Shown here in pieces: positions 7,895 through 28,657 of a stretch of DNA of 64,000 nt (its first letter is position 1; each line of letters starts with the position of its first letter). The stretch covers positions 2,528,001 through 2,592,000 of the forward strand of contig OY776510.1 of NCBI GenBank assembly GCA_963675665.1, read 5' to 3'. The notes under the pieces were generated by a model. The model was not told where the DNA came from. It did not search any database and saw only the letters and a list, made by a program, of their open reading frames with translations. The position numbers were made by a program, and so were the translations under genes. Source of the DNA: Spirochaetia bacterium. GTDB lineage: Bacteria > Spirochaetota > Spirochaetia > UBA9216.

Positions 7895-8736
7895 ATGAAA
7901 CAGCCGTTGAATTATTTGAAGCATCATTTTCTTACGGGACCGAACCTGTTTTTTCGAATATCTCCGGAAAGATTAATCGCGGAGAGATCGTGTGTCTTCT
8001 GGGCGCAAACGGCTGTGGAAAGACAACCCTGATGAAATGTATGAACGGGCTTCTGCAGTTCGAAAGCGGAAAGGCTTTTATTCTGGGGAAAGATTTATTT
8101 TCAATGAGCGAGAGAGAACTTGCGATGAAAACAGCTTTTGTTTTCCAGGGTTATTCTCAGGTTTTTTCATATTCCGTTACCGACATTGTTCTTACCGGAA
8201 GGGGGCCCCATCTCGGCTTTTTCTCTTTTCCAGGACAAAAAGACAAACAAAAAGTTTTTTCAATTATGAAGGAAATGCATATAAGCCATCTGGCTTCACG
8301 ATATTTTCCCACCCTGAGCGGAGGAGAGCAGCAGCTTACAATGATCGCCCGGGCCCTGGCGCAGGAACCTTATGTGCTTTTTCTTGATGAGCCGGCTACA
8401 GCTCTGGATTTCGGAAATCAGCAGTACCTGTTAAGGACTGTAAAGAACCTGGCCAGGGTATACGGAATAACGATAGTAATGTCGACCCATTACCCGGACC
8501 ATGCATTGGCCGTTGCAGACAGTATCTGGGCAATAAAGGACGGCCGGATTATCAGTTCGGGACCTCCGCTTGAAGTCCTCACTGAGGAAAATATTTATAA
8601 ACTTTATAATGTGCCGGCCAGAGTGATTGAAGTGAGAGAAGAAGGAATTAATTCTCATACTGTAGTCCCCCTGGATAACAAAGCCGGCGATGAAGTAAAT
8701 TTTATTCTTGCGAACAAAGGTAAAGATAATGAGTGA
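7891..8736 (+). CDS. ABC ATP-binding protein (FepC/BtuD type)
   Basis: Walker A GANGCGKT, signature LSGGEQQ, Walker B FLDEP, STH switch. ATGA overlap with the permease. Confidence 0.95.
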   Translation: MNETAVELFEASFSYGTEPVFSNISGKINRGEIVCLLGANGCGKTTLMKCMNGLLQFESGKAFILGKDLFSMSERELAMKTAFVFQGYSQVFSYSVTDIVLTGRGPHLGFFSFPGQKDKQKVFSIMKEMHISHLASRYFPTLSGGEQQLTMIARALAQEPYVLFLDEPATALDFGNQQYLLRTVKNLARVYGITIVMSTHYPDHALAVADSIWAIKDGRIISSGPPLEVLTEENIYKLYNVPARVIEVREEGINSHTVVPLDNKAGDEVNFILANKGKDNE

Positions 8737-13772: not shown

Positions 13773-14537
13773 CTACGCGATAATAACCTTTATCCCGGCA
13801 GCTTCAAAATCCGCTTTCTGCCGGTCAGTTATGCCGCCGTCTGTGATCAGGCAATCTATCCTGTCCATCGCACGAAGGGCTGCAAACGCAGGCCGGTTTA
13901 TCTTTGTTGAATCGACAAGCAGAAACACCTCGTCGGCCGAATCAATCATGGCCTGCTTAACCGGCAGGTCGCTGAAGCCGGGATAAGTCAGCCCGGTATC
14001 AAGTGATACCCCCGCCGCCGCGAGAAACAGCTGGTGAACATGCATATTCTGAAAAAAGACGGCCGCTTTATCGCCGGTCAGCGAAAGCGTCGGCGCCTTA
14101 AACTCGCCCCCCGTCATATGTACTTCCATCCCGGGGTTTGCCCCGAGAATCAACGCGATGTTGAGGCTGTTGGTAATAACCCTGAGTTGTTTGACTCCGG
14201 CAAGGCTGCGGGCCAGTTCGGTTACGGTGGTCCCTGAATCGAGTATGATGGAAGTATTCTCCTTTACAAAGCCGGCGGCCCTTTCGCCTATCTGTTTTTT
14301 GAGATCCATGTTTTCGGTATGTTCCAGGGACAGAGATTTAACCCTGTCGGATATGTTTTTAAGAAATGCGCCCCCGTGGTCTCTTGCAATCTCGCCGGCG
14401 GATTCAATTTTTACAAGATCCTGCCGTATCGTGGGTTCGGAAACATTAAAAAGATTGCTCAGATAGGTTACCCTTGCGCTTCCGTTTTCTCTTATAAGCT
14501 CAATAATCTTTTCGCGGCGCTGTTCAGCCAGCATCAA
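13773..14537 (-). CDS. DeoR/GlpR-family transcriptional regulator
   Basis: HTH VSEPTIRQDL, RDHGGA, ILDSGTT, ITNSL and DSTK. Confidence 0.93.
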   Translation of the reverse strand: MMLAEQRREKIIELIRENGSARVTYLSNLFNVSEPTIRQDLVKIESAGEIARDHGGAFLKNISDRVKSLSLEHTENMDLKKQIGERAAGFVKENTSIILDSGTTVTELARSLAGVKQLRVITNSLNIALILGANPGMEVHMTGGEFKAPTLSLTGDKAAVFFQNMHVHQLFLAAAGVSLDTGLTYPGFSDLPVKQAMIDSADEVFLLVDSTKINRPAFAALRAMDRIDCLITDGGITDRQKADFEAAGIKVIIA

Positions 14538-16003
14538 TCAAGTCCTTTAAGAATTTCAACCCATTGCCGGTATTTATCAACCAGGTTCGGACTGAAATTA
14601 TTTTTGGAGATTTCGTCGTCATTATATTTCAGTTTGTTCAGATTTGCAATCGAATCAAATATTTCTGATTTCAGTCCGGCCAGCAGGGCTGCTCCAAGCG
14701 CCGAGGCTTCGCGAAGGCGGCATTTGATTATCCGCGCGTTATTGAGTCCGGAAATGCTGTTCATCACAAAGCTGCTGTCGGATACGCCGCCGTCAACCTG
14801 TAATGATTTCAGAGGTTCATTCATGTCTTTCTCCATGGCGCGGAGTACATCCGTAACCTGAAATACTATTGATTCAAATGCCGCTTTTATAATATGGCTT
14901 TTTCCTGATTCAAAGGTAAGTCCGCGTATTGCAGCCTGTTCGGACATTTTCCACCATGGCGCTCCCAGTCCGCTGAATGCCGGAATCAGAACTACGCTTC
15001 CCGAACTTTCGGTGTTCTCCGCTATTATTGCTGCTTCAGCCGAATCGGCAAAAAGCCCCAGCTGATCGCGCAGCCATGTTATGGTAGAGCCGCAGCTGAC
15101 TATGATGCCTTCAAGCGCGTAAGAAACCTGATTTTCGGTACTCCAGCATATTGTTGAAACCATTGAAGTTTCAGCCGGCTCGACAAGTTCTCCGGTGTTC
15201 AGCAGAATGGATGATCCTGTTCCCATTGTCGCTTTGGCTGAGCCTTTTTCGAAGCATCGCTCGCCGAAAGCCGCGGCATGTGAGTCTCCTATCATTGCAT
15301 TTACCTGCAGGGGGCGGGGCAGCAGGCCGTTGAAATCGGTTGAGCCGAAATTCGCGCCGGACGGCAGCGCTTCGGGCATGTTCAGTTTTTCAAGCCCGAA
15401 CAGCTTCATCAGGTCTTTATCCCAGCAAAGCGATTTCAGGTTGAACAGCATTGTGCGGGATGCATTTGTATAATCGGTTTTATACGAAGCGCCCCCGGTC
15501 AGTCTGTACAGAAGCCAGCTGTCTATGGTTCCGAAAAAAGCCTTGCCGCTGTTTATTTTTTCGCGGATTTCGGGGTTTTCTTCGGCAAGTCTCACAATCT
15601 TTGTTCCCGAGAAGTACGGATCGATAAACAGACCCGTTTTTTCGCGGATGAATGATTCATGTCCTTCATCTATCAGGCGGCGGCATACGGGTATCGAACG
15701 TTTGCACTGCCATACTATCGCCGGGGCAAGAGGGGCGCCGTTTTTATCCCACAGCAGGAAGGTTTCACGCTGATTTGAGATTCCGCAACAGACAAGGTCA
15801 GCTGCGGCAGGAGTTTCCGCAATATTACCGACTGCTGCAAGAACGCTGGAATATATTTCTTCGGGATCCTGCTCAACATAACCTTCGACAGGATAATAAC
15901 TTTTCAGCGGGGCTCTTCCTTCAGCCCGGATTTCGCCTGATTCATTAAACAGAATTGCCTTGGAGCCGCTTGTGCCCTGATCGATTGCAAGAATAGTGAC
16001 CAT
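14534..16003 (-). CDS. FGGY-family carbohydrate kinase (glycerol kinase-like; possibly apulose kinase)
   Basis: AIDQGTS, ISNQRET, DPYFSGTK, TDYTNASRT, GDSHAA, YALEG, PAFSGLGAPWW and VDGG. Confidence 0.88.
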   Translation of the reverse strand: MVTILAIDQGTSGSKAILFNESGEIRAEGRAPLKSYYPVEGYVEQDPEEIYSSVLAAVGNIAETPAAADLVCCGISNQRETFLLWDKNGAPLAPAIVWQCKRSIPVCRRLIDEGHESFIREKTGLFIDPYFSGTKIVRLAEENPEIREKINSGKAFFGTIDSWLLYRLTGGASYKTDYTNASRTMLFNLKSLCWDKDLMKLFGLEKLNMPEALPSGANFGSTDFNGLLPRPLQVNAMIGDSHAAAFGERCFEKGSAKATMGTGSSILLNTGELVEPAETSMVSTICWSTENQVSYALEGIIVSCGSTITWLRDQLGLFADSAEAAIIAENTESSGSVVLIPAFSGLGAPWWKMSEQAAIRGLTFESGKSHIIKAAFESIVFQVTDVLRAMEKDMNEPLKSLQVDGGVSDSSFVMNSISGLNNARIIKCRLREASALGAALLAGLKSEIFDSIANLNKLKYNDDEISKNNFSPNLVDKYRQWVEILKGLD

Positions 16004-16018
16004 TTCAAACCCTTTACA

Positions 16019-16957
16019 TTATTTCATCTTTGATAAAATTTCTTTTACCGAGCTGATTATACCATCAGAGTCAAGACCGTACATCTTTTTCAGAACCTCC
16101 CGTGGGGCTGCTTCGGCAAAATATCCTGCCGGCACGCCCCCGCGTTTAAGGCTGCAGTCAAGACGGTTGTCCAGGATTATTTCGGAAGTTAAAGCGCCGA
16201 TTCCTCCGTGAGTGCTGTGTTCTTCAAGCGTTAATGCTGCTCCTGTTTTTTGAAGCGACTTGATTATCCCCTCAGGGTTTAGCGGCCTGATTGACGGCAG
16301 ACTGATAATTTCTGCGCATACGCCTTCTTCTTCAAGGGCAACAGCCGCCCTTATTGCTTCATGTACGATTGTTCCCAGAGTAATCAGGCTGATGTCCCGG
16401 CCTTCACGTATTACGACAGCTTCTCCCGGTGTAAACCTGTAAGAAGCCTTGTGGATATTATCAGCCTTGAAACTGTCAAGCCTTATATAAACCGGCCCTT
16501 CATATGATGCAGCGTAGCGGGTTATCTGGCGGGTCTCTTCCGGATCGCACGGCGCAAAAATCTGAATGTTTCCAAATGCCAGTGCGGTTGATATATCGTC
16601 TATGCAATGATGGGTCGGCCCGAGTGAGCCGTATGCAAAGCCCGGGTTCAGACCGGCAAGTTTGACATTGGTATTTGAATAGCATACATCGGTTTTTACC
16701 TGCTCGTTTGATCGTCCCAGCAGAAATGGCGCTGCGTTAGCTGTAAACGGAATTGTTCCCCCGAGAGACATTCCGGCGGCAATGCCGATCATGTTCTGCT
16801 CGGCAATGCCCGTGTTTATGACAGAATCCGGATACTTTTCCATAAAGGGTTTAATTCTGCATGTTGATGTTGAATCGCTTACCAGGACATAAAGCCTGTC
16901 GTCATTTTCCTTTATCCTGCTTAACTCTTCTACAAAACAGTCTCTTAATTCTTCCAT
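16019..16957 (-). CDS. Transketolase C-terminal (pyrimidine-binding) subunit
   Basis: GIAEQNM, GPTHH, GPVYIRL and EEHSTHGG. Confidence 0.92.
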   Translation of the reverse strand: MEELRDCFVEELSRIKENDDRLYVLVSDSTSTCRIKPFMEKYPDSVINTGIAEQNMIGIAAGMSLGGTIPFTANAAPFLLGRSNEQVKTDVCYSNTNVKLAGLNPGFAYGSLGPTHHCIDDISTALAFGNIQIFAPCDPEETRQITRYAASYEGPVYIRLDSFKADNIHKASYRFTPGEAVVIREGRDISLITLGTIVHEAIRAAVALEEEGVCAEIISLPSIRPLNPEGIIKSLQKTGAALTLEEHSTHGGIGALTSEIILDNRLDCSLKRGGVPAGYFAEAAPREVLKKMYGLDSDGIISSVKEILSKMK

Positions 16958-16959
16958 TT

Positions 16960-17787
16960 CTACTCAAGCTCCCTGATTGCGCTTGTAATTTCGTCTCCGA
17001 CTGGTATTTTGTGGTGCCAGGCTGCCTGGTCTTCAATAAAAGAAACGCCTTTCCCTTTTATTGTTTTTGCAATGATTACCGAGGGTCTTCCAACGGTTTT
17101 CATGGCTCCGGCAGCCGCTTTCAGAAATAATTCCGGGCTGTTACCGTTCGTTTCGATTACGTGAAAGCCGAAACTTCGGAATTTATCCGGCAGTGGTTCC
17201 AGCGCCATGATCGTTTCAGTCCGGTCGGCGAGCTGAAGGGTATTCCTGTCTATTATAACGGTAAGATTATCCAGCCTGAAATGTGCGGCGCTCATGGCGG
17301 CCTCCCAGTTTGAGCCTTCTTCCAGTTCCCCGTCGCCCAGAAGGACCCATGTCCGGTATGAAGCGTCTGTTTTTTTTGCGGCAAGAGCCATGCCGACTGC
17401 AGCCGGGAAACCGTGTCCCAGAGCGCCGGTGTTGAATTCTATGCCGGGCGTTTTCTGTCTTACCGGGTGGCCGGGCAGTTTTGCGCTACTGCCCAGATAT
17501 TCGCTTAACAATGACTTTTGAATAAAACCGGCTTCCGCAAGGGTGCAATAGTATCCGCCGACACCGTGGCCCTTGCTGAGGATAAACCTGTCCCTGCCGG
17601 GATCCTGCGGATTATTAATGTTGTAACGAAGAAGGTTGAAGTAGAGGCTTGCAAGGATATCGGTCTCGGATAAATCTGCGCCGGTATGCCCGGCGCCTGC
17701 ATTGGAATTCATCTCGATGATATTCCTTCTGATTTTTTTGGCTTTTTCTCCTGTTTCTTCAGCCGAAAGAGCAAAAGGATTTTTCAT
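16960..17787 (-). CDS. Transketolase N-terminal (TPP-binding) subunit
   Basis: RDRFILSKGH, LPGHP, TGALGHG, GDGELEEGSNWEA, TIKGKG and WHH. Start MKNPF follows an AAGGCGGG RBS. Confidence 0.92.
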   Translation of the reverse strand: MKNPFALSAEETGEKAKKIRRNIIEMNSNAGAGHTGADLSETDILASLYFNLLRYNINNPQDPGRDRFILSKGHGVGGYYCTLAEAGFIQKSLLSEYLGSSAKLPGHPVRQKTPGIEFNTGALGHGFPAAVGMALAAKKTDASYRTWVLLGDGELEEGSNWEAAMSAAHFRLDNLTVIIDRNTLQLADRTETIMALEPLPDKFRSFGFHVIETNGNSPELFLKAAAGAMKTVGRPSVIIAKTIKGKGVSFIEDQAAWHHKIPVGDEITSAIRELE

Positions 17788-17817
17788 GTTTACCCGCCTT
17801 TCTGATTGTATGATTTG

Positions 17818-17964
17818 ATAATAACATCCAAACTTGCGTTTGTCAATCCAAAACGAAAATAAAACAAATAAATAGAAAGTTAAAAAAGATAAAAAACGCA
17901 ATAATAGAGCATAAACATAAATAAAAACATTGACAAACGAAATAGTCCGTGATAAAACGTAAGC
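17818..17964. promoter_or_regulatory. Divergent sigma70 promoters with phased AAACR repeats (putative DeoR operator array)
   Basis: Minus strand: TTGACA (17846-17841), 17 nt, TATTAT. Plus strand: TTGACA (17930-17935), 17 nt, TAAAAC. AAACGAAA-like units recur at roughly 10-11 bp multiples. Confidence 0.65.
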
Positions 17965-19380
17965 ATGAAAGACGGAAAAATCACATTCGGAGTAATTGTT
18001 GGGACCAGGGGGTTTTTCAACCCGGAACTTGCTGCGGAAGGACGGACACAGATTACAGCCCTGCTCGAGGAAAAGGGTTATAACCACGTTATTCTCGGCA
18101 GTTCGGAAACCCCTACCGGTGTTATTGAAGGTTATGACGACGCAAAAAAATGCGCCGCGCTGTTTCGACGCGAACGCGACGTCATAGATGGGATTCTGGT
18201 AATTTTGCCGAATTTCGGTGATGAAATAGGTGTTGTTAATACTTTAAAGGCAGCCGACCTTAATGTTCCGGTAATGGTGCAGGCGTCGAACGATGAAAAC
18301 GATAAAGTGGATGTGCTCCACCGCCGCGATGCGTTCTGCGGCAAGATCTCTGTATGCAACAACCTCTATCAGTACGACATCCCTTTTACAAATACAAGTC
18401 TGCATACATGCAATATTAACTCGGAAGAATTCGCTGCTGATCTCGACCGTTTTGCGGCGGTCTGCCGGATTGTTTCGGGCGTGAAAAAGGCCCGAATAGG
18501 GGCAATAGGAACACGACCGGCTGCTTTTCAAACGGTTCGTTTCAGTGAGAAGTTGCTGCAGGCCTCGGGGGTAACGGTTGTTCCTGTTGATATGTCGGAA
18601 ATTATTGCTGCGGCAGAAAAGCTGGCAGCCACAGATTCTGCGGTTCAGCAGAAACTTGAAGCTATTCACGGTTACGGCCGAATAGCCGTGGGAATTAACA
18701 ATGAGCAGATTGTTCGACAGGCGAAGCTTTCTGTAGTAATTGATAATTTTGTCGCAGAGAATGAGCTTGATGCTACCGCGGTACAATGCTGGGACAGCAT
18801 TCAATATAACTACGGCTGTGCCGCCTGCCTGTCCATGAGCATGATGGGTGAATCGGGACGTCCTTCAGCCTGCGAGATGGATGTTGCGGGAGCTTTATCC
18901 ATGCTGGTTCTGCGGCTGGCCTCCGGTAATTCTCCCGGGTTTCTTGACTGGAACAATAACTTCGACTATAAGGCCGAGAAATGCGTCTGTACGCATTGCA
19001 GTAATTATCCTGCAAGTTTTATGGGTTCGGATATTGAAATTGGACAGCTTGATATTCTCGGCAACACAATAGGAGCCGAGAAGTGTTTCGGGGCAATAAA
19101 GGGCAAGGTAGCTTCGGGCGATATGACCTATTTCAGGCTGTCCACCGACGATACATGGGGAACCATAAAGGCATACGGGGGAGAAGGTGAATTCACCGAT
19201 GATGCTTACGGTATGGACGGCGGAATTGCCGTCTGCCGTGTTCCCGGGCTTAACGATGTTATGAATCATATTTGTATGGAAGGATTTGAACATCATGTAG
19301 CAATGGTCAGGGGACATTGGGTCGGGATAATCGAGGAAGCCCTGGGGAAATACCTTAAGTGGGAATTCGCTCTTCTGTAA
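17965..19380 (+). CDS. L-fucose/L-arabinose isomerase-family sugar isomerase
   Basis: NFGDE, RRDAFCGK, AVQCW, SACEMD, HCS and GFEHHVA. Confidence 0.88.
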   Translation: MKDGKITFGVIVGTRGFFNPELAAEGRTQITALLEEKGYNHVILGSSETPTGVIEGYDDAKKCAALFRRERDVIDGILVILPNFGDEIGVVNTLKAADLNVPVMVQASNDENDKVDVLHRRDAFCGKISVCNNLYQYDIPFTNTSLHTCNINSEEFAADLDRFAAVCRIVSGVKKARIGAIGTRPAAFQTVRFSEKLLQASGVTVVPVDMSEIIAAAEKLAATDSAVQQKLEAIHGYGRIAVGINNEQIVRQAKLSVVIDNFVAENELDATAVQCWDSIQYNYGCAACLSMSMMGESGRPSACEMDVAGALSMLVLRLASGNSPGFLDWNNNFDYKAEKCVCTHCSNYPASFMGSDIEIGQLDILGNTIGAEKCFGAIKGKVASGDMTYFRLSTDDTWGTIKAYGGEGEFTDDAYGMDGGIAVCRVPGLNDVMNHICMEGFEHHVAMVRGHWVGIIEEALGKYLKWEFALL

Positions 19381-19560
19381 AACCGGATTGTTTTTATCGG
19401 AATCGGCCGCAGTTTCTGCGGCCGTAATTAACCACGCTTGTTCATATCGATAAGCTCTTTTGGTGCAGAATATAAAATGATCCCCATATTCAGTAACTTA
19501 TGATAAAATAGCCATCTGACATGTCATTTTGAGAATAAAGTTTATTATACAGGGGGCGGA

Positions 19561-21105
19561 ATGGAATCCCTTTTTGATGTTGTGGTCATCGGTTCGGGGC
19601 TCGGGGGGCTGAGCGCGGCTTTTGAATGCAGCAGGAAAGGTCTGAAAACTCTATTGCTTGAACAGCATAATTTACCCGGCGGGTATGCCTCAAGTTTTGT
19701 TCGCGGACGGTTTGAGTTTGAACCCTCGCTTCATGAGCTTCCCGATATGCGTTCCATCAAAGCCGCTACCGGGGTTATCCGTTACCTGTGTGATGATGCG
19801 GGACTGGACGTTTCCTTTTCTTCGATCCCCGACGCCTACAGGGTTATTCTTACCGATAAGGGAACGGACGTCAGAATGCCTTTCGGTGTTGAAAACCTTA
19901 TTGCAACAATTGCAGCTGAAGTACCCGGAAGTGAGGAGCCCGTCAGAAATTACATGACCCTGTGCCGGGAGGTCCAGGACGCTTTCAAATATCTGAATGA
20001 ACATGCAGATCATCTCAATTTTCGCGAAGTACTCAAAGAGCATGGAAACTTTATCCGTACCGGGGCTGCCACAGCGGCACAGGTTGCTGATTCACTGAAT
20101 GTCCCGGAGGCTGCAAGGGATCTGCTGCTTCCTTACTGGTGCTATCTTGGAGTTCCGGAGAACAGGGTTTCTTTTTCAATCTGGGCGGCCCTGCTTGATG
20201 CATATATATCTTCCGGTGCGGTAATTCCGAAGTTCCGTTCCCATGAGCTTTCGCAGGCGTTTATTGATAAATTCATTAGATCGGGCGGGGAATTCCGGCC
20301 CAACAGCAGGGTGGACCGGGTTATAGCAGAGAGCGGCCGGATAAAGGGTGTTGAGCTGGAAAACGGAGAGGTCATAAATACTCCCGTCGTAATAAGCAAT
20401 ACCTCGCCCACGAATGTTTTTTCAAAACTGGTATATCCGGAAAGTGAAGTCCCGCCGACGGCGTATAAAAATATTAGATCACGTAAAATGGGGTTCAGTC
20501 TGTTTGTCGTATATCTCGGGCTTGATGCGTCTCCGGAAGAACTCGGGCTTACGGATTACAGCTATTTTATTGCGCCCCATATGGATACTGAAAAACTGTA
20601 CCCAGAGGGGAAATCCCTTGATTCAACGGAGATTATGCAGGCTTCGGTTTGTCTTAATATCGGGAATCCGGGCTGTTCGCCTCCGGGGACAACCATCCTG
20701 GCCCTTACGGCGGGACAAAGGGCCGAAGCCTGGGCTGATGTTACCGCCGATTCATATCAGCAGACAAAAGAGATGGTTGCCGAAATAATGATAGACCAGT
20801 TTGAAAAGGCGGTCGGCGCAGATCTCCGTTCACATATTGAAGAAATAGAGATTGCATCGCCGCAGACCTTTGCCAGGTATACCGCGTCCCACGACGGCAT
20901 TGTATACGGGTATGAACCGGAAGTATGGGACGGAATTATCCCCAGGATTTTAAACCGGAAAGAAGAGAACTATATTGACGGGCTTCATTTCTGCGGAGGC
21001 TTTTCGTTCAGATGCCACGGATACGGTAGTTCCATCATGAGCGGAAAGGCTGCGGCAGAGGCTGTGTTTGCTGAATACGGAACGGGGAATATGAATGAAG
21101 GTTGA
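19561..21105 (+). CDS. Phytoene desaturase/retinol saturase-like FAD-dependent oxidoreductase
   Basis: VVVIGSGLGGL dinucleotide fold, EQHNLPGGYASSF.RGRFEFE, FVVYLG, IEIASPQTFARYT..DG.VYG and GLHFCG. Confidence 0.85.
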   Translation: MESLFDVVVIGSGLGGLSAAFECSRKGLKTLLLEQHNLPGGYASSFVRGRFEFEPSLHELPDMRSIKAATGVIRYLCDDAGLDVSFSSIPDAYRVILTDKGTDVRMPFGVENLIATIAAEVPGSEEPVRNYMTLCREVQDAFKYLNEHADHLNFREVLKEHGNFIRTGAATAAQVADSLNVPEAARDLLLPYWCYLGVPENRVSFSIWAALLDAYISSGAVIPKFRSHELSQAFIDKFIRSGGEFRPNSRVDRVIAESGRIKGVELENGEVINTPVVISNTSPTNVFSKLVYPESEVPPTAYKNIRSRKMGFSLFVVYLGLDASPEELGLTDYSYFIAPHMDTEKLYPEGKSLDSTEIMQASVCLNIGNPGCSPPGTTILALTAGQRAEAWADVTADSYQQTKEMVAEIMIDQFEKAVGADLRSHIEEIEIASPQTFARYTASHDGIVYGYEPEVWDGIIPRILNRKEENYIDGLHFCGGFSFRCHGYGSSIMSGKAAAEAVFAEYGTGNMNEG

Positions 21106-22339
21106 GATTAACGGATCTTTCAGGGATATTGTTTCATTTATTGTTCATATAAAAAAGCGAAAGCGGATTTTTAAAAGGGCGAAAGCGTCGCCGGTGGCAC
21201 CGGGGCGGATGAATATGCTCGCCGAAGAGCTGCACCCCCTGTCGCAGAGGCTTATTGTAGATTCGGTTATAACTGAAACTGCCGATGCCAATACCTACAG
21301 GCTTAAAGGGGCGGGGCGGCGCCCGGCATTTTTTATTCCCGGGCAGTATATAAGTATAAGCCTGCAGATAGGCGGGTCAACTCTTGCAAGACCGTTTTCG
21401 ATTTCCTCCATGCCGCAGCAGACCATAGATGCCGGTTATTATGACATAACTGTAAAAAACAGCGACGACGAAGGATTTACCGGCCGGTGGATTATGGAAA
21501 ACTGGAAAACCGGAACCGAGGTAATGTCTTCAGGACCTGCAGGCTCCTTTACCTGGCAAAAACTGCGCGACTGCAGCTCTCTTGTGTGCATAGCCGGCGG
21601 TTCGGGAATTACTCCGTTTAAACCTATTATAAGTTCGCTGCTTTCATCCAACCGGTTTTCCCGGGTGATACTCTTTTATGGTGCCCGCAATTCAAATGAT
21701 CTTATTTTTAAAGATTTCTGGGAAGATACTGTAAAAAAACACGCCGGCAGGTTTTTCCATATTCCTGTTCTGTCTGAACCGGACAACGGCTGGCAGGGAG
21801 AGAAAGGATTTATCACAGCGGAGCTTATAACCCGGACGATAAAATCGGTACCGGGCGGGTTTACAGCCGACGAATGCAGTTACTTTATCTGCGGCCCCGA
21901 AGGGCTTCACAGTTTTATTGATAAGGAACTTTCCGGTCTTGATATCTCCGGCAAACGAATTCGCCGCGAGGAATATGCCGTTAATACCAGAAGCAGCGGC
22001 GTCGGTTCCCCGAGCGGAAAGAGAATTGTTTCCTTAACCGTCAGGCAGGGAGACAGTAATCTTGAAATAAAGGCTGATCCGGATGAAACTGTTCTTGTAG
22101 CCCTGGAAAGGGCGGGGCTGGACCCCCCGTCGCTCTGCCGGACCGGAGAATGCGGCTGGTGCCGGAGCAGGCTTGTTTCGGGAAAGATATCCGGGAACAA
22201 AAAGCCGGGACGAAGGTCTGGATTGCGAATGGCGGATGAGAAGTTCGGGTATTTTCATCCCTGCTCGGCATTTCCCGAAAGCGATCTGGTAATTGAGATC
22301 CCGCCGAATCCCGTAAAAAACTTAAGGAGTAGTTTATGA
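21095..22339 (+). CDS. FAD/NAD-binding oxidoreductase with C-terminal 2Fe-2S ferredoxin (Hcr/PaaE/Rv3230c architecture)
   Basis: FIPGQY, RPFSISS, GPAGSF, IAGGSGITPF, YFICGP and CRTGECGWC...HPC. Confidence 0.9.
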   Translation: MKVEINGSFRDIVSFIVHIKKRKRIFKRAKASPVAPGRMNMLAEELHPLSQRLIVDSVITETADANTYRLKGAGRRPAFFIPGQYISISLQIGGSTLARPFSISSMPQQTIDAGYYDITVKNSDDEGFTGRWIMENWKTGTEVMSSGPAGSFTWQKLRDCSSLVCIAGGSGITPFKPIISSLLSSNRFSRVILFYGARNSNDLIFKDFWEDTVKKHAGRFFHIPVLSEPDNGWQGEKGFITAELITRTIKSVPGGFTADECSYFICGPEGLHSFIDKELSGLDISGKRIRREEYAVNTRSSGVGSPSGKRIVSLTVRQGDSNLEIKADPDETVLVALERAGLDPPSLCRTGECGWCRSRLVSGKISGNKKPGRRSGLRMADEKFGYFHPCSAFPESDLVIEIPPNPVKNLRSSL

Positions 22340-23196
22340 AGATTGTTGCTGATTCAGCGCTGCAGCTGGAGCAGGAAACCGTTAAAAGTCTCGGACTGAA
22401 GGTTGTCGAATATCCTATGTATCTGAACGGCGAAGATTATCCTGTTTCGATGTCGATGAGCCGCTCGGAGAAAGATGAACTCAGAATGCTTCTGAAGGAT
22501 AAAAACAACAAGATTACTACTTCCGGTCTGAGGGAACGCGATCTGAAGGAGATATATCTTTCCTGCAGGAAAGATAAGATAATCTCAATTCACCAGTCCG
22601 GCAGGGCCTCTACAGCTTCTTCGGCCATGATAAACCGGGTACTGACTGACAACCCTGAGCTGGATGTGACCTTTATCGATGCCCATCACCTTACCGCTGC
22701 CTACTCGGTTATCGTTCAGCAGGTTGCAGAGGCTGTTGCAGCCGGGATGGAGTTTGATGAACTGATGAGATATATCGAAACAATTCGTGATAATACCAGG
22801 CACCTGGGCGTCGTGTACGACCTCTTTTACCTGCACCGGACCGGGCGAATAGGTCTGGCCAAAGCCGTTATGGGGTCCGCAATGAAAATTATTGCCCTGC
22901 TTGGTTCTTCCGATGAACCCGGGGTCCTTGTATCCATAGGCAAGGTAAAAAATCATATCCAGGCGAATACTAAATTTGCGGCCCTGGTAAAAGAGGATAT
23001 GGAGAAGAAAAACGGCAAACGGGTCAGGTGTGTTATTTCAGTCATCGGACCTCATGAAAAGGAAGCGGAAGACCTTAAGAACAGGCTTGAAGAGCTGGAT
23101 TTTCCTGTTCATGCCGAGGTACACTACTCAAACCATTCAAATATGCCCCACGCGGGGCCTGATTTCTATGATCTGGGGTATACGATCCATGCCTAG
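22336..23196 (+). CDS. DegV/FakB fatty-acid-binding protein (divergent)
   Basis: MKIVADS, ITTSG, ISIHQS, L.YLHRTGRIG and H.GP. Confidence 0.85.
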   Translation: MKIVADSALQLEQETVKSLGLKVVEYPMYLNGEDYPVSMSMSRSEKDELRMLLKDKNNKITTSGLRERDLKEIYLSCRKDKIISIHQSGRASTASSAMINRVLTDNPELDVTFIDAHHLTAAYSVIVQQVAEAVAAGMEFDELMRYIETIRDNTRHLGVVYDLFYLHRTGRIGLAKAVMGSAMKIIALLGSSDEPGVLVSIGKVKNHIQANTKFAALVKEDMEKKNGKRVRCVISVIGPHEKEAEDLKNRLEELDFPVHAEVHYSNHSNMPHAGPDFYDLGYTIHA

Positions 23197-24787
23197 TCAT
23201 GTTCTTGAATGCGGAGATTTCACAAGGGCGTTTTTCACCAGCGCCGAACATCTCAATGTCAATCTGAAAGTCCTTGACAACCTTAACGTATTCCCTGTTC
23301 CCGACGGAGATACGGGCGCCAATATGTGCGCTACCTTTATTCCGGCGGTGAAAAATCTTAAGGGCGGAAGGATCCTGTCCTGCAGGGACATCGGCGACAT
23401 CATTGTTCCGAAAATGGACAATCACAGCCGCGGTAATTCGGGATTTATAATCTCCAGGTTTTTCAAGGGATTTTTCTCATGTATGAACCAGGACTCCGCC
23501 CTGACAATGGACAGAATTCGGGACGGATTTTCCAGGGGATATTTTGAAGCGCATACCGCCCTTTTTAATCCTGTGGAAGGAACTATGATCTCGGTGATTT
23601 CTTCAATGAATGAAGCGATTACAGGCTGGAGCGGCAATTCCATAAGGGAATGTCTTGAACATGCCGTGGCTGAAGCAAGAAAAACTCTTTTCAGAACGCC
23701 TGAGATGCTTCCGGTGCTTGCCCGCGCCGGGGTCGTCGACAGCGGCGCGCTGGGATTTATATGCATTATAGAAGGTCTGCTTCTGGGGTTGAGCAGCAGG
23801 AGTCCTTTCAGGGAAATAGAATCGGAGTACAGGTTCAGCCCGGACCCCGACGCCGGTTCGGATGATGTCAGTCTGAAACCGGGGCAGTTCTGCACAGAAT
23901 TAACGATGAAGCTTGAGCATAACTTCCCTGAAAAGGAAATTCGCGAGTATCTGGTAGAGATGGGAAACTCGATAGCCCTTGTAAGGGAGAATGATTTTGT
24001 AAAACTGCATATTCATACTGATTTTCCTGATCAGCTGATTAATAAATTTGAACAGTTCGGGACCATAACGGACAGAAAAATTGATGATATATATGCCCAG
24101 ATTAAGGGGGGCAAGGGCAGCGGAGAGGCCTTCAGAGGCTGTGAAGTCCTGCCCTGTGTTCCCGGCCCGGGGTTTAAAAAAATATTCAACGATCTCGGCA
24201 TTGAGAACGTTCTTGTTTACGGTCCGTCGCTGCCGTCCGCCAGGGAGATCCTCGAAGCTGTCGATAAAGCCGGGGTTGAAGATCTGATTCTTCTTCCGAA
24301 CGACAGTAACATTCTTCCTGCATGCATGACGGCCAAAGAGAAAAGCGGCAAGCATATCTCAATCATCCCTTCGGGAGATATTGTTCAGGGGCTGACCGCC
24401 TGCTACGGGTTCAGCGAGAACGAGGAACTTGAAGTAAATACAGTTTCCATGACAGACTGCCTCGGTATGGCCGATTCGTTTTTCATGTACAAAAGCGCTG
24501 CCGATCGGAGTTTCGGCGGGATTGATATCAGAAAGGACCATTATTTTCTGGTTAAGGGAAAGGACATCCTGTCTGTGGATATCGATTACTGCCGCGCAGT
24601 CATGAACGGGCTTGAAAAAGCTGATACAGACCAGAAAGGCAACATCACCCTTTTCTACAGGGAAGCGGAAGGCGGGGCTGAGCTGGAAGAACTCAGGACG
24701 CTTATTACCGAAAAATTTCCTCACCTGGAACTGGAACTGATTTTCGGAGGGCAGAGCCGGGGAGAGTTGATTATTGCTCTTGAATAA
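23189..24787 (+). CDS. DAK2-domain fatty acid kinase catalytic subunit (FakA/YloV-like)
   Basis: LNVFPVPDGDTGANM, RGNSG, PVEGTM, AGVVDSGALG, FCTE, KLHIHT, ILLPNDSN and GGQ. Confidence 0.9.
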   Translation: MPSHVLECGDFTRAFFTSAEHLNVNLKVLDNLNVFPVPDGDTGANMCATFIPAVKNLKGGRILSCRDIGDIIVPKMDNHSRGNSGFIISRFFKGFFSCMNQDSALTMDRIRDGFSRGYFEAHTALFNPVEGTMISVISSMNEAITGWSGNSIRECLEHAVAEARKTLFRTPEMLPVLARAGVVDSGALGFICIIEGLLLGLSSRSPFREIESEYRFSPDPDAGSDDVSLKPGQFCTELTMKLEHNFPEKEIREYLVEMGNSIALVRENDFVKLHIHTDFPDQLINKFEQFGTITDRKIDDIYAQIKGGKGSGEAFRGCEVLPCVPGPGFKKIFNDLGIENVLVYGPSLPSAREILEAVDKAGVEDLILLPNDSNILPACMTAKEKSGKHISIIPSGDIVQGLTACYGFSENEELEVNTVSMTDCLGMADSFFMYKSAADRSFGGIDIRKDHYFLVKGKDILSVDIDYCRAVMNGLEKADTDQKGNITLFYREAEGGAELEELRTLITEKFPHLELELIFGGQSRGELIIALE

Positions 24788-24820
24788 CGGAAGCTGTTTT
24801 TAAAGAAGGAATGATAATAA

Positions 24821-25486
24821 ATGAATGTTCAATATGTTGTTGTATCAGTTATTTCGATAATTGCCGGATATCTGTCAGGATCGGTTAATTACGCCATTCC
24901 TGTTACAAGGATGGTTATCGGCAAGGATATCAGGACCATAGGCAACCACAACCCGGGGACATCCAATGTTGTCCGTGAGGTCGGTGCAGCCTGGGGCGTT
25001 TTAGTCGGGTTTCTTGACGGCATGAAGGGGCTTGTTCCCGTATTAATACTGAGGATTGTGTTTTTCAGCGGGGACAGCGGGATCGATTTTTTTATCCTTT
25101 ATCTTACGGGTTTTGCCGCGGTTATCGGACACTGCAAATCCGTGTTCCTGAAATTTAAAGGCGGCGGCGGTATCGGCACAATGCTTGGGGTATCACTGTT
25201 CTTTGTTCCGGTTGAATTCCTCTTTTCGATGTTCCTGGGAGGGCTGATCGTGCTGATCTTTTTCAGGAATGCAAAGTACCGGTTCGGCCAGAAAACGCCG
25301 ATCTTTTTTGTAACCCTTACGCCGTTTGTGACCCTGGCGTCTTCCCTGATTATGGATATACGCCTGTTCGCGCATATTTCGATAGGGGGACATAACTGGG
25401 GCACCATAGCAGGCGCCTTTGTTATGTCCCTCGGCATTCTGTCGTTTAATCTGAAATTTCTTACTTCAAAATCCGGAAAGAGGTAG
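24821..25486 (+). CDS. plsY: Acyl-phosphate:glycerol-3-phosphate acyltransferase
   Basis: GYLSGS, DIRTIGNHNPGTSNV.R, LDGMKG and GH...FLKFKGGGG. Confidence 0.88.
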   Translation: MNVQYVVVSVISIIAGYLSGSVNYAIPVTRMVIGKDIRTIGNHNPGTSNVVREVGAAWGVLVGFLDGMKGLVPVLILRIVFFSGDSGIDFFILYLTGFAAVIGHCKSVFLKFKGGGGIGTMLGVSLFFVPVEFLFSMFLGGLIVLIFFRNAKYRFGQKTPIFFVTLTPFVTLASSLIMDIRLFAHISIGGHNWGTIAGAFVMSLGILSFNLKFLTSKSGKR

Positions 25487-25519
25487 ATGCGGCTGCATAA
25501 ACAGCAGCCGTTCTTCGAA

Positions 25520-25906: not shown

Positions 25907-27343
25907 TTAAAGTTCTGTTTCTTCGGGATACCAGATACTGGTTTTATGTTTGAATGACCTTTTGCCTGCATATTTAAGGAAAAATAATCCGGTAAAAAGC
26001 AGGTAAGCAACATTTATCAGAACCGCTATCCAGAACCATTTGAAATCACCGGTGGTGTAGGTATGAAGAGGTAAATTCATGGTAAGAACATACGGCATGG
26101 CAAAAACAAACGTAATGGCTGATGCATAGGTATAGTCGGTGGCAACGGGAGTTTCAAAATCCGGGTCAACAACACGAAGAAGAGCAAGACCTGTAGATAA
26201 TGTTCCGGTTGAAACCCCGAACACCAGCAGGGTCCTTAAAAACCTGTGATCTGAAAAAATTCTTGATGAGTACCAGAGAGTTGTAAATGCAACGACAACT
26301 GCTCCGATAACCGCAGTTATAATAATCGGCGCCCAGTAATTCATTATAACGACTATTGAAATTGCCGCAATTGCACTGGCCACCATTACGTCTACAAAAA
26401 TACCGGTAAGTCTGTTCATGGTCATATTGTCAACAATATATTGCTTGTCTGTGGCTTTCAGTATTTGACGCAGCAGCAGTCCCGCAAGCGCGGCGAATAT
26501 AAAACTGAGGCCCCAGAATGTATCCGCCAGCCTTTCGCCGGTCGGTCCGAGAAACGAGAGAAGATAGTCCAGTCCTTTCAGCGTAAGGAATGCGGCAAAA
26601 TAACCCAGCAGAACAAGGGCCAGGTTCAGGGTCAGGGTGTCGATCGCTTCAGTTTCAGTAGTAAGAAATGAACCCGGTTTGAGTTTGGCTCCTTTCGGAT
26701 GTATTCCCGGGCGCAGGTCCTTATCCTTTAAAAAACTTACCTGCTCTTCGGGTATCCAGTTCTTTTTAAGGCCGATATTGATCATTAGAATACCGCCGAA
26801 ACTGCACAATATGAATCCCAGTGCGGCAAATGTCAGTCCTATGCTCCCGGCGCCTTCTACACCGAATGCTTTCCAGCTTTCTCCTATCGAATATGCCTGG
26901 CCCGGGCCCTGGGCGAACCCCAAAGGAAGCAGGTAGCCGAAGCTGTGAAATAAATCGGGCTTGATGGTTTTTATAAATACAAAGGTCAGGATAAGTCCAA
27001 TAAAACCCTGCACGCCGAACTGGAACAGTACGGAGAGCGAGGTGCCGAATATTCTGCCTTTTCCCGGTTTTTTTCGCGGCAGGGCTTTCAACGACAATGC
27101 GACGAACGAAAGGCTCAGCAGGTGATACGCCATTTCGCCCAGATCTACCGTCGACAGCCCGATATGCGGAAATACAAAATTATATAACGGCAGCAGCATA
27201 AAGCCTGCAAGCAGCGAATTCGGTATCAGGTATCTTTGAAAAAAGTTAACTTTTGTTCTGATAATAGTGGCAAGAAGAAGAGCCGCGGATATAATTCCGA
27301 GATTTATAAACACTGACCATTGATAACTCATGTAAAACCTCAT
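25907..27343 (-). CDS. GltS-like sodium:glutamate symporter-family transporter
   Basis: About 12 TMs. FQRYLIPNSLLAG, GFAQGPG and GVSTGT.STG.ALLRVVDP. Confidence 0.8.
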   Translation of the reverse strand: MRFYMSYQWSVFINLGIISAALLLATIIRTKVNFFQRYLIPNSLLAGFMLLPLYNFVFPHIGLSTVDLGEMAYHLLSLSFVALSLKALPRKKPGKGRIFGTSLSVLFQFGVQGFIGLILTFVFIKTIKPDLFHSFGYLLPLGFAQGPGQAYSIGESWKAFGVEGAGSIGLTFAALGFILCSFGGILMINIGLKKNWIPEEQVSFLKDKDLRPGIHPKGAKLKPGSFLTTETEAIDTLTLNLALVLLGYFAAFLTLKGLDYLLSFLGPTGERLADTFWGLSFIFAALAGLLLRQILKATDKQYIVDNMTMNRLTGIFVDVMVASAIAAISIVVIMNYWAPIIITAVIGAVVVAFTTLWYSSRIFSDHRFLRTLLVFGVSTGTLSTGLALLRVVDPDFETPVATDYTYASAITFVFAMPYVLTMNLPLHTYTTGDFKWFWIAVLINVAYLLFTGLFFLKYAGKRSFKHKTSIWYPEETEL

Positions 27344-27433
27344 TTATAGTTTGCGCTGTATATGAAAAATCTATTATAATTATTGATGGGATTTAAGAAT
27401 ATTGCAACAAGGAATTCACTACAGGAGTATCGT

Positions 27434-28657
27434 ATGGCGAAAAAAAAACGCATCGGCAAAATAAATCCTATTTTTGAGGCAATACTCAGAAAGATATTAA
27501 AGCAGCTTTTTAAAAACCTGTTCAGGGTAAGACTGGATCTTCCAAACGAAGTAAATACGCTTAAACCGCCATTTATTCTTTTACCGAATCATCAGGGTTT
27601 CTGGGATCCTTTTCTGGTTGGAGTATACCTCAGGGATCCTGTTTACTATATAACTTCGGATGCCGTGTTCAGATCGAGGTTTCTGGACTTTCTGCTGAAG
27701 TTCCTCGGGGCAATACCGAAAACGAAATCACAGTCGGATCTTGATGCTCTCAAGCATATATTTGATATGAAAGACCAGGGCCGTAATATAGGAATTTTTG
27801 CTGAGGGGCAGCGTAACTGGTCGGGTTCAACACTTCCTCTTATTAAATCAACTTCGAAACTCATCCGGATGCTCAGACTTCCGGTAGTAACAGCAGTGAT
27901 AAAGGGAGGCTTTTTCAGTCATCCCAGGTGGGGCACTTCCATACGGACCGGCGGTCTGCTGATAGAGTACAGGCTGTTGTTCGGCGGACATGAAGTCGGC
28001 AGTATGAAGGTTTCTGAAATCCATGATAAACTGACCGGGGCCCTTTCTTTTGATGAGGTTGAATATCAGAAAAAGCAGAAGATTGAATATAAAGGAAACA
28101 GGTTTGCTGAGAATATCGAGCAGTTTTTATTTACATGTCCGGAATGCGGCTCGATGGACGGTCTTTATTCACATTCAAACAGTTTTAAATGTCTGAACTG
28201 CGGCAAGGAGTGGAAGATTGACAGTTATCAGACTATATCTGCTTCAGACGGAAACACAATGTTTGATAATATTCGTGACTGGGATGAATGGCAGCGAAAA
28301 AAACTTCATGAAAGAATAGATCATTTATTCGGCACCGGGGAAGTTATTTTCGATGACGGCGGACTCCGGATTAATACCGGTTATAAAAGCCGAAGGCTGA
28401 AAAGATTTATAAGCGGCTCCATGAAACTTACTTCGCTGGATCTGTCTATTTGCGACAAACACGGGAAGGAAGTGTTGAAAATTCCAGTCAGGGAAATAAA
28501 CGGAATAAATGTTCAGAACAGGGAAATTCTCGATTTATATTATAACAGCGTGCTGTATGCAGTTCGTGATCCGCGAAGGCGTTTCAGCTCATATAAATGG
28601 TGGAGAGCTGTTGATTATCTTCAGCGCGAAAAACTGGGACTGAATCTGCCGGACTGA
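27434..28657 (+). CDS. PlsC-like lysophospholipid acyltransferase with a C-terminal zinc-ribbon extension
   Basis: NHQGFWD (HX4D), GAIP, IFAEGQR, then CPECG...CLNCG. AGGAG RBS. Confidence 0.85.
   Translation: MAKKKRIGKINPIFEAILRKILKQLFKNLFRVRLDLPNEVNTLKPPFILLPNHQGFWDPFLVGVYLRDPVYYITSDAVFRSRFLDFLLKFLGAIPKTKSQSDLDALKHIFDMKDQGRNIGIFAEGQRNWSGSTLPLIKSTSKLIRMLRLPVVTAVIKGGFFSHPRWGTSIRTGGLLIEYRLLFGGHEVGSMKVSEIHDKLTGALSFDEVEYQKKQKIEYKGNRFAENIEQFLFTCPECGSMDGLYSHSNSFKCLNCGKEWKIDSYQTISASDGNTMFDNIRDWDEWQRKKLHERIDHLFGTGEVIFDDGGLRINTGYKSRRLKRFISGSMKLTSLDLSICDKHGKEVLKIPVREINGINVQNREILDLYYNSVLYAVRDPRRRFSSYKWWRAVDYLQREKLGLNLPD

Follow-up and report, generated by a model that had tools for sequence, protein, structure and literature searches.

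Why an enzyme with the fold of carotenoid desaturases should be encoded together with a fatty acid kinase and a phospholipid acyltransferase is the question raised by a locus of a Spirochaetia bacterium (assembly GCA_963675665.1), found within a stretch of 64,000 nucleotides (nt) of contig OY776510.1, positions 2,528,001 to 2,592,000, referred to below as the window. Five forward-strand genes at window positions 19561–25486 of the open reading frame listing encode, in this order, a flavoenzyme, a reductase, a DegV protein of the FakB type, the fatty acid kinase FakA and the acyltransferase PlsY. The unit recurs unchanged in many related anaerobes and is therefore likely to modify scavenged fatty acids ahead of their incorporation into lipid.

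The first gene (19561–21105) encodes a flavoenzyme of 514 residues, assigned to the FAD-dependent CrtI/CRTISO fold by Pfam, NCBIfam and an AlphaFold 2 (AF2) model. It overlaps by 11 nt the gene for a 414-residue NAD(P)H:FAD/[2Fe-2S] reductase (21095–22339), in which an FNR-like module precedes a C-terminal plant-type ferredoxin. An overlap of 4 nt leads to the gene for the DegV/FakB-type fatty-acid-binding protein (22336–23196; 286 residues with a DegV domain), and one of 8 nt to that for the FakA-type catalytic subunit of fatty acid kinase (23189–24787; 532 residues with Dak2, FakA-like_M and FakA-like_C domains). After a gap of 33 nt follows plsY (24821–25486), for a divergent 221-residue acyl-phosphate:glycerol-3-phosphate acyltransferase matched by PF02660. 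The longest FakA frame, 23030–24787, opens within the DegV gene with a GTG (23030); as the true start we took the ATG at 23189 in the same frame, because the resulting 532 residues fit the 530-position YloV model. The successive overlaps and the final gap reported in the initial annotation agree with these coordinates, and profile matches place all five proteins, as divergent members, in the families that it had named.

Conservation was surveyed in 401 genomes of the class, with a threshold of E 1e-110 for the flavoenzyme and a limit of E 1e-30 for DegV. The flavoenzyme was matched in 25 of these genomes and DegV in 22, the latter at 45–100% identity, and no DegV match in the 401 genomes lay between E 1e-79 and 1e-30. 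All matches being at least 45% identical, with nothing weaker down to E 1e-30, this DegV represents a discrete subtype. Its gene directly follows the reductase gene in every one of the 22 genomes with the subtype (contigs mapped by tblastn), and the carriers of the five-gene unit belong to eight coded families of Spirochaetia. The complete unit stands on one contig in the same order at 14 loci, the window included, with gaps of -11 to 99 nt, a recurrence beyond what would be expected by chance. At L091 plsY alone is clipped; L100, L101 and L129–L133 are cut by contig ends, with no foreign gene between the parts, and the loci of the three genomes with a DegV match and no flavoenzyme match (G608, G622 and G722) are of this contig-cut kind. 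Five more instances were found on metagenome contigs by a scan with alignment A1 (L134, L135, L137, L139 and L141).

The five genes are inherited as one unit with a single origin. Pairwise distances among the five proteins are correlated over the 14 complete loci (r 0.80–0.94), and the order is kept in loci with flavoenzyme identity to the window as low as 47%. A maximum-likelihood tree of 38 flavoenzymes unites the five-gene context in one clade (support 100/99), which comprises 17 five-gene rows, two contig-cut rows and one exception and lies nested among lineages that have only the flavoenzyme-reductase pair. Flanks differ between the five-gene loci. No conserved sixth gene was found among 50 proteins in the flanks of 17 of them, and lipid-type genes are scattered there, namely YhhN (L090), DUF1295 with a second PlsY (L094) and MMPL (L100). 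The initial annotation had made its reading depend on conservation of the redox pair beside fak and pls genes; such conservation was found in 22 of 22 genomes with the DegV subtype, and the FakB that it had called divergent proved to be this subtype, seen in this gene context only.

It could be argued that adjacency reflects no biochemical coupling, a generic redox pair having landed upstream of fakB-fakA-plsY in an ancestor and been carried along ever since. Indeed, the pair is functional alone in most lineages, and one member of the clade (L059) kept it without fak genes. Passive carriage of this kind is nevertheless very improbable, given an order kept through eight coded families and down to 47% flavoenzyme identity with junctions of the translational-coupling type, a DegV subtype never found apart from the pair (22/22), and five genes that move together into different flanks. 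A housekeeping fak/plsY set behind an unrelated upstream pair was also considered and is ruled out, as fakA, fakB and plsY were found in none of five congeners and no DegV of this subtype was found away from the pair.

A two-component redox enzyme

Flavoenzyme and reductase form a wider two-component enzyme in its own right. Flavoenzyme homologues at E 1e-60 or better are present in 62 of 401 genomes of the phylum sample, and a reductase gene adjoins the flavoenzyme gene wherever the contig leaves room for it, at 36 of 36 genome loci (17/17 and 19/19) and at 62 of 62 metagenome loci, with 15 further loci contig-cut; these counts were read from the locus tables, and genome locus L097 was left out as contig-cut. 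In the form of separate genes, the pair is recorded throughout Spirochaetota and in metagenomes from sediment, digesters, gut and camel, with the gene order reversed at L144. On five metagenome contigs (L148, L158, L170, L173 and L195) a reductase gene is accompanied by two or three paralogous flavoenzyme genes, arranged for instance as flavoenzyme-flavoenzyme-reductase-flavoenzyme or flavoenzyme-reductase-flavoenzyme. One reductase may serve several flavoenzymes of different specificity. The genome studied here has a second pair outside the window (46% and 39% identity), which adjoins a divergent GntR/FadR_C regulator.

The two proteins also exist as a single polypeptide. Among 22 long homologues, 20 are reductase-flavoenzyme fusions (clusters P0121–P0140, 904–951 residues), 19 of which are 44–48% identical to the flavoenzyme. 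Their source names, where given, are Syntrophales, Smithellaceae, Syntrophaceae and Deltaproteobacteria. In the one fusion examined (P0121), the reductase occupies the N-terminal residues 25–421, including a conserved 45-residue N-terminal extension, and the flavoenzyme the C-terminal residues 437–936, both at full length. One of the fusions is mislabelled at its source as a 3-ketosteroid-9-alpha-hydroxylase reductase subunit. As to other homologues of the flavoenzyme, P0115 and P0120 (49% identity) bear the source label of Asgard archaea (Hermodarchaeota and Promethearchaeota), and another, 60% identical, that of Bacteroidetes.

The reductase carries the Pfam domains FAD_binding_6, NAD_binding_1 and Fer2 in that order, an architecture of the PaaE/Rv3230c type. 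R99 of the RxFS motif at the FAD site, the GGxGxTP motif at 168–174 and the four cluster cysteines of the Cx4Cx2C...C pattern are invariant in 36 homologues, where the CGP nucleotide motif is also kept; in a residue-by-residue count, R99, G168, G169, G171, T173, P174, C348, C353, C356 and C390 are each conserved at 95% or more. All equivalog cut-offs are missed (PaaE, 134.9 against 420.8), the nearest NCBIfam families being PaaE, BenC and similar ones, with MmoC also among the matches. On these grounds we propose that the protein is of the electron-donor type and would serve the flavoenzyme. Rv3230c, the DesA3 reductase, which we take to share this domain architecture and to serve a lipid-modifying enzyme, is an analogy of architecture only: DesA3 is an O2-dependent di-iron desaturase, whereas the partner of the reductase here is a flavoenzyme. 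The genome has no match to FA_desaturase, the membrane di-iron desaturase family, and a partner of the DesA3 kind is ruled out.

Reductases of this kind usually serve oxygenases, as the PaaE, BenC and MmoC matches recall, and the reduced flavin could conceivably react with O2 to hydroxylate, epoxidise, ketolate or desaturate the acid. The DesA3/Rv3230c analogy is of this nature, and CrtO-type ketolases belong to the family of the flavoenzyme, if only as a weak match. The setting of the pair makes such chemistry highly unlikely. Its loci lie beside genes for glycyl-radical enzymes and their activases (L067, L147 and L149), radical SAM proteins and pyruvate:ferredoxin oxidoreductase, the fusions carry the names of Syntrophales, which are strict anaerobes, and the genome itself encodes a glycine-reductase-like DUF5940/FA_synthesis protein.

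The flavoenzyme has a DAO/Amino_oxidase domain over residues 14–502 (Pfam), with the N-terminal FAD Rossmann motif VIGSGLGG at residues 9–16. Its best NCBIfam match is the model of the carotenoid isomerase CRTISO, TIGR02730 (116.3 bits, cut-off 586.9), level with the CrtI/phytoene desaturase model TIGR02734 (115.6 bits, cut-off 238.1); both models are matched over their full length, and neither cut-off is reached. HpnE and CrtO-type ketolase are among the weak NCBIfam matches, and the geranylgeranyl reductase family is matched over the N-terminal Rossmann part only. The AF2 model (predicted local distance difference test, pLDDT, 90.2) displays the three-domain CrtI fold. Its top structural match is 4rep, a CrtD-type gamma-carotenoid desaturase (Z 36.9, root mean square deviation 3.0, 472 of 489 residues aligned), followed by 3ka7 (Z 30.5) and plant phytoene desaturase 5mog (Z 29.0), and then by a plateau at Z 24–27 of protoporphyrinogen and amine oxidases. 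This plateau includes the fatty acid isomerase of P. acnes, 2b9w (Z 25.5, 400 residues aligned, rank 24), level with the amine oxidases; the sequence search with the flavoenzyme gave no match to 2b9w. A Protein Atlas search returned uncharacterised CrtI-like clusters only, the sole trace of retinol saturase being a cluster at rank 18, auto-named 'All-trans-retinol 13,14-reductase'. The genome, a single contig of 5.15 Mb and 96% complete, contains no match to SQS_PSY (PF00494, phytoene/squalene synthase). The absence of crtB and crtE noted in the initial annotation hence extends to the whole genome, and a carotenoid role of the flavoenzyme is ruled out in a genome without an SQS_PSY match.

CRTISO needs reduced FAD, and the flavoenzyme might act likewise as a reduced-flavin isomerase, catalysing a cis-to-trans change or a positional shift of the double bond with no net redox; the sole task of the reductase would be to hold the FAD in its reduced state, and Fak and PlsY would follow. 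TIGR02730 is indeed the best NCBIfam match, at 116.3 against 115.6 bits for the CrtI model. A member of the superfamily, the P. acnes polyunsaturated fatty acid isomerase (PAI; 2b9w, Z 25.5), acts on free linoleic acid and was placed in 2007 with phytoene dehydrogenases in the flavin amine oxidase family (PMC2885616, in the available part of that source). Isomerisation is nevertheless less likely than saturation and, taken by itself, rather improbable: a strictly conserved, stoichiometric reductase, fused in 20 clusters, fits an electron demand at the level of the substrate better than occasional priming, and the TIGR02730 score stays far under its cut-off of 586.9.

In the genome and metagenome neighbour surveys, no individual gene recurs consistently beside the pair. 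The metagenome survey considered the Pfam families of the nearest one or two open reading frames on each side (138 of 214 listed proteins) and left out L167, L168 and L174, which looked like near-copies of L163, L166 and L169. The commonest immediate neighbours are regulators, with GntR/FCD proteins having a FadR_C match at nine loci (L051, L067, L155, L163, L164, L169, L186, L202 and L208), a GntR/FCD protein without such a match at L204, and TetR proteins at ten loci (L068, L107, L109, L187, L198, L199, L205, L206, L209 and L210). Enzymes of fatty acid type include enoyl-CoA hydratase/isomerase (L145 and L146), an acyl-CoA dehydrogenase with an NMO/FabK-like protein (L144), acyl-CoA-type ligases (L053 and L165) and an old-yellow-enzyme/Pyr_redox_2 protein of the 2,4-dienoyl-CoA reductase (FadH-like) type (L055). 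Other lipid-type neighbours are a lipid kinase (L146), PAP2 (L056) and YhhN (L058 and L090), with PcrB beside some pairs. This collection is suggestive of a link to fatty acids and not decisive. The YhhN gene, of a family that includes lysoplasmalogenases, lies directly beside the flavoenzyme gene both at a five-gene locus (L090:10723–11409) and at a pair-only locus (L058:9610–10275).

These neighbours also bear on the stage at which the flavoenzyme would act. Reaction order need not mirror gene order, enzymes of the CrtI type are commonly monotopic membrane proteins with membrane-embedded substrates, and UfaD of Rhodobacter acts on incorporated acyl chains in furan fatty acid synthesis. The flavoenzyme could accordingly work after incorporation, on the acyl chains of lysophosphatidic acid or phospholipid, with the operon reflecting shared regulation of membrane remodelling. 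We consider this distinctly improbable. The pair is widespread without fak or pls genes and stands beside acyl-CoA-type genes and FadR-like regulators, which points to free acids or thioesters, and it is fused in proteins named after Syntrophales.

The FakB-FakA-PlsY line

The DegV protein matches its Pfam domain (E 1.9e-37) and TIGR00762 (137.5, above the cut-off of 99.7), and stays below the cut-off of the FakB1 equivalog NF038249 (51.5 bits, cut-off 350). Its structural model (pLDDT 86.0) matched 29 FakB/DegV entries at Z 23–27 over residues 1–286, with FakB1, FakB2 and FakB3 tied. In an alignment of 21 members of the subtype T62, R171 and H272 are invariant and S88/S92 conserved, and the motifs align with TSQPS, SSGxSG, GGR and the C-terminal His of pneumococcal FakB1 (6dke). 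We take T62, S88/S92 and H272 to be carboxylate-binding residues, and R171 to be the arginine of GGR, with roles as in FakB2 of S. aureus. Canonical motifs and fold being kept, this FakB-type protein would be expected to bind a lipid carboxylate and to pass the acid to FakA. The further suggestion that the acid is modified while bound to FakB finds no support in any test made here; prediction of a flavoenzyme-FakB complex with alignments A1 and A2 scored 0.00, a 'no answer' result that counts neither way, and no DegV fusion was scored among 5633 long candidates, which is weak evidence.

FakA exceeds the Pfam cut-offs for Dak2, FakA-like_M and FakA-like_C and stays below those of TIGR03599 (384.1 against 396.1) and NF038248 (232 against 975). 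PlsY matches PF02660 (G3P_acyltransf) with 108.4, for a cut-off of 24.1 (E 5.2e-31, profile positions 2–141 of 164), and does not reach the cut-off of TIGR00023 (93.1 against 137.2). The PlsY type of the operon scores 109–118 bits, as against 151–171 bits for the second, canonical PlsY present in two carriers, G646 and G598. In G646 this second copy (L094:3054–4495; 151.6 bits over the full profile) adjoins the five-gene unit and is preceded by a DUF1295/steroid-reductase-like membrane protein, and a second FakA-like fragment of 35% identity lies a few kb beyond it.

Such divergence could mean that the acid is a lipid carboxylic acid of another kind (isoprenoid, branched, conjugated or oxygenated), carried into lipid by the specialised FakB, or that the flavoenzyme performs another reductive reaction, e.g. 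a dehydroxylation of the HpnE kind. A discrete DegV subtype confined to this context, with 51.5 against 350 for FakB1, and a PlsY at 109–118 bits rather than 151–171 fit this; the CrtI family includes reductive reactions other than saturation, HpnE being among the weak matches, and YhhN, PAP2 and PcrB genes stand beside some pairs. It appears unlikely all the same. FakB keeps the canonical carboxylate motifs and a standard fold that favours none of FakB1, FakB2 and FakB3, related pairs have regulators and enzymes of the fatty-acid and acyl-CoA type as neighbours, and no isoprenoid-acid pathway genes are conserved nearby.

PlsY (PF02660), FakA-like_C and DegV each have one match in the genome, and all three lie in the operon. 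A search for second, housekeeping copies of fakA and plsY, as called for by the initial annotation, found none in the genome, so that the operon copies are the only ones. A search of the genome for the PlsX-family FA_synthesis domain did not find a canonical PlsX. Its only match, a weak stretch of 68 bits, lies in a 783-residue DUF5940 protein (G000:C1:1926916–1929267, or L004:190–2541) that we read as no PlsX. Nor was a convincing PlsX found in five other operon carriers, one of which has a similar weak match in an 851-residue frame, and PlsY apparently operates in these spirochaetes with no PlsX. As no canonical PlsX was found and the operon PlsY is the sole PlsY in three of the five other carriers examined, PlsY would be fed by fatty acid kinase alone, and free acids would enter lipid along a closed line. 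A FabZ-type dehydratase and a FabF-type synthase show that the genome encodes type II fatty acid synthesis, and it has six PF01553 acyltransferases and three acyl-CoA dehydrogenase family genes.

The unit is accessory. The flavoenzyme was found in two of ten other genomes of the order, and FakA, PlsY and DegV in none of five congeners (G406–G410, 81–100% complete, so that the result is one of 'not found' only). In another genus of the family (G404, L005), all five genes are present at 62–85% identity between unrelated flanks. The same genome has a second, partial fakA-plsY end on a contig of 3.8 kb (G404:C100:1–3799, L060; 56% and 72% identity to the window), representing a second cassette or else contamination, which amounts to 6% in G404. 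The right flank of the window site, comprising an open reading frame of 100 residues, a 478-residue membrane protein and a 424-residue acyltransferase, is kept in three congeners. In G406 a cobQ-like gene lies about 1 kb from this flank; cobQ ends at 13769 in the window, and from this difference in distance about 11.7 kb (13.77 to 25.5 kb) are missing at the site in congeners. The segment consists of a sugar cluster (DeoR, FGGY kinase, split transketolase and isomerase) and the five-gene operon, and has a G+C content of 0.465–0.494, compared to roughly 0.43–0.46 in the flanking 2-kb bins. Since its fak and plsY genes are the only copies, congeners lack them and no canonical PlsX was found, the unit would be a self-contained accessory route rather than an addition to housekeeping genes.

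Proposed reaction and known systems

The reading that we favour, with a confidence that stops a little short of even, is that C=C bonds of scavenged unsaturated fatty acids are saturated at the expense of NAD(P)H ahead of Fak/PlsY incorporation. The reductase would draw electrons from NAD(P)H and hand them singly to the FAD of the CrtI-fold flavoenzyme, which, once reduced, would saturate at least one C=C bond of a free fatty acid, probably a polyunsaturated one, in the membrane region or directly at the membrane. By family membership, the specialised FakB would then bind the acid, FakA would phosphorylate it to acyl-phosphate, and PlsY would move the acyl group to glycerol-3-phosphate. The operon as a whole would be a self-contained pathway that starts with redox editing of a free fatty acid and ends with lysophosphatidic acid. 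A general-chemistry calculation places the couple of an isolated alkene and its alkane near 0 to +30 mV; NAD(P)H-driven saturation would therefore be strongly downhill and NAD(P)+-linked desaturation not feasible. Substrate, direction of electron flow and reaction are thus what we infer from family and fold, a donor-type reductase, thermodynamics and neighbours of fatty acid type. The initial annotation had seen here a dedicated module for reduction or isomerisation of fatty acids. What this implied for the genomes, i.e. conservation, co-evolution and a DegV subtype, has held, and its C=C chemistry keeps the standing of a proposal.

Several points weigh against saturation. The flavoenzyme lies far under every curated cut-off of the CrtI family, so that transfer of function from family membership would be weak; the closest solved structure to its model is a desaturase, 4rep, and no saturase; and its clade is without any biochemically characterised member. 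Most neighbours of the pair elsewhere have no link to lipids, and cation-efflux genes follow it at five loci. A congener within the five-gene clade (G408, L059) has the pair without fak or plsY genes, its flavoenzyme split over two frames, and a metagenome homologue of 51% identity that was left out of the tree (L140) is likewise accompanied by the pair only. A genus with genomes of about 4 Mb, from another class of the phylum, also has relatives of the pair, and the host may never encounter unsaturated fatty acids.

Each protein family in the unit has known representatives, and as far as our searches show, what is new is a two-component enzyme of CrtI fold and its joining to a private Fak/PlsY line. 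FakA/FakB and PlsY of Firmicutes belong to the same three families, with the same FakB fold and carboxylate motifs and the same three FakA domains. Unlike them, the proteins here score below NCBIfam equivalog or subfamily cut-offs, are joined to a redox pair in one operon with no detectable PlsX, and form an accessory unit missing from five of five congeners. With CrtI, CrtD, CRTISO and retinol saturase the flavoenzyme has the fold and FAD Rossmann motif in common, but it scores a fifth to a half of the family cut-offs, its host is without phytoene/squalene synthase, and an NAD(P)H/[2Fe-2S] reductase is its obligate partner. We know of no such partner for the characterised members of these families. 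PAI (2b9w), an FAD enzyme of the same superfamily, is a distant relative, which has no reductase partner and catalyses no net reduction. Archaeal geranylgeranyl reductase is a flavoenzyme that saturates C=C bonds of lipids with electrons from a dedicated iron-sulfur protein encoded adjacent to it; it is alike in principle, but of another flavoenzyme family, with isoprenoid lipid substrates and no link to fatty acid kinase.

The Lactobacillus CLA enzymes and the linoleate isomerase and reductase systems of Butyrivibrio also convert free unsaturated acids anaerobically to more saturated ones, as far as the available parts of the sources go. The Lactobacillus route consists of a hydratase, a dehydrogenase, an isomerase and an enone reductase (CLA-HY, CLA-DH, CLA-DC and CLA-ER; PMC13365329, available part), enzymes of other families than the flavoenzyme/reductase pair. 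The fatty acid oxidoreductase of Butyrivibrio was, according to the available part of a 2015 genomic paper (PMC4478896), not in KEGG, COG or Pfam, though its sequence had been reported (Fukuda 2007), and for lack of such a family entry it could not be looked for in that study. In the literature searched, to which subscription journals did not belong, no paper was found in which a phytoene-desaturase-like enzyme is connected with FakB, fatty acid kinase or biohydrogenation. The statement of the initial annotation that no operon of such composition had been described is in keeping with these searches, which returned none.

It is tempting to speculate that the pair is the missing oxygen-independent double-bond reductase, or 'biohydrogenase', for free fatty acids of anaerobes, hard-wired in one clade of Spirochaetia to a private FakB-FakA-PlsY line; we put this forward tentatively, regarding it as possible and more open to doubt than to confidence. 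The enzymes of O2-free fatty acid saturation are poorly settled outside the Lactobacillus hydratase route. Long-chain acids are saturated before beta-oxidation in anaerobic digesters, and a rumen spirochaete is said to have been reported in 1971 to hydrogenate unsaturated fatty acids. If the pair is such an enzyme, toxic polyunsaturated acids would be saturated and then placed in membrane lipid, and a molecular basis would be at hand both for hydrogenation by the rumen spirochaete and for saturation ahead of beta-oxidation in digesters. As a candidate the pair is sharply defined and very widespread, its natural fusion form should be easily expressed, and in the five-gene clade the product should show up in phospholipid by way of the private FakB-FakA-PlsY line. 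The unit would also represent a Fak/PlsY pathway without PlsX that travels as an accessory cassette, and could bear on what becomes of dietary or algal polyunsaturated fatty acids among the anaerobes of sediments, digesters, the rumen and the gut. With an unusually clean genomic case, the pair is a directly testable candidate for a long-standing problem, and saturation is its proposed reaction.

Flanking signals and neighbouring genes

Hairpins lie on both sides of the operon. Upstream, after the fucose-isomerase-like gene, a hairpin with a 9-bp stem at 19404–19424 (+), CGGCCGCAG-TTT-CTGCGGCCG, marks the end of the preceding transcription unit; no T run follows it, hence it was not listed by the terminator scan. 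A promoter-like site, ATGTCA-16-TATTAT at 19521–19548 (+), matches the consensus 13 nt before the first start codon and is weak alone, as 11 such sites were found against 8.5 expected in shuffles. Downstream, 3 nt past the plsY stop, a second hairpin at 25489–25511 (+), GCGGCTGC-ATAAACA-GCAGCCGT, is followed by TCTTCG; it is absent from the terminator-scan list and is the probable end of the operon transcript.

The sugar cluster upstream of the operon spans 13773–19380. Its GlpK-like FGGY kinase scores 492.9 bits for a cut-off of 590, its transketolase is encoded as N and C halves, and the fucose-isomerase-like protein shows a weak match to SftI (sulfoquinovose isomerase; 100 bits, cut-off 700). 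Further upstream, at 8708–10960, a 750-residue radical SAM protein is encoded between a periplasmic-binding-protein/FecCD/ABC transporter set and a CobQ-type amidotransferase. Downstream of the operon, the multi-pass membrane protein of 478 residues (25907–27343, - strand) belongs to no Pfam family, is 79–90% identical in five of five congeners and has a 52% paralogue in the genome studied here. Back to back with it lies the gene for the PlsC-family acyltransferase of 424 residues (27383–28657, + strand), which has a long C-terminal extension with CxxC...CxxC; at L132, a homologue of 32% identity is found about 2.5 kb from the plsY gene of the operon.

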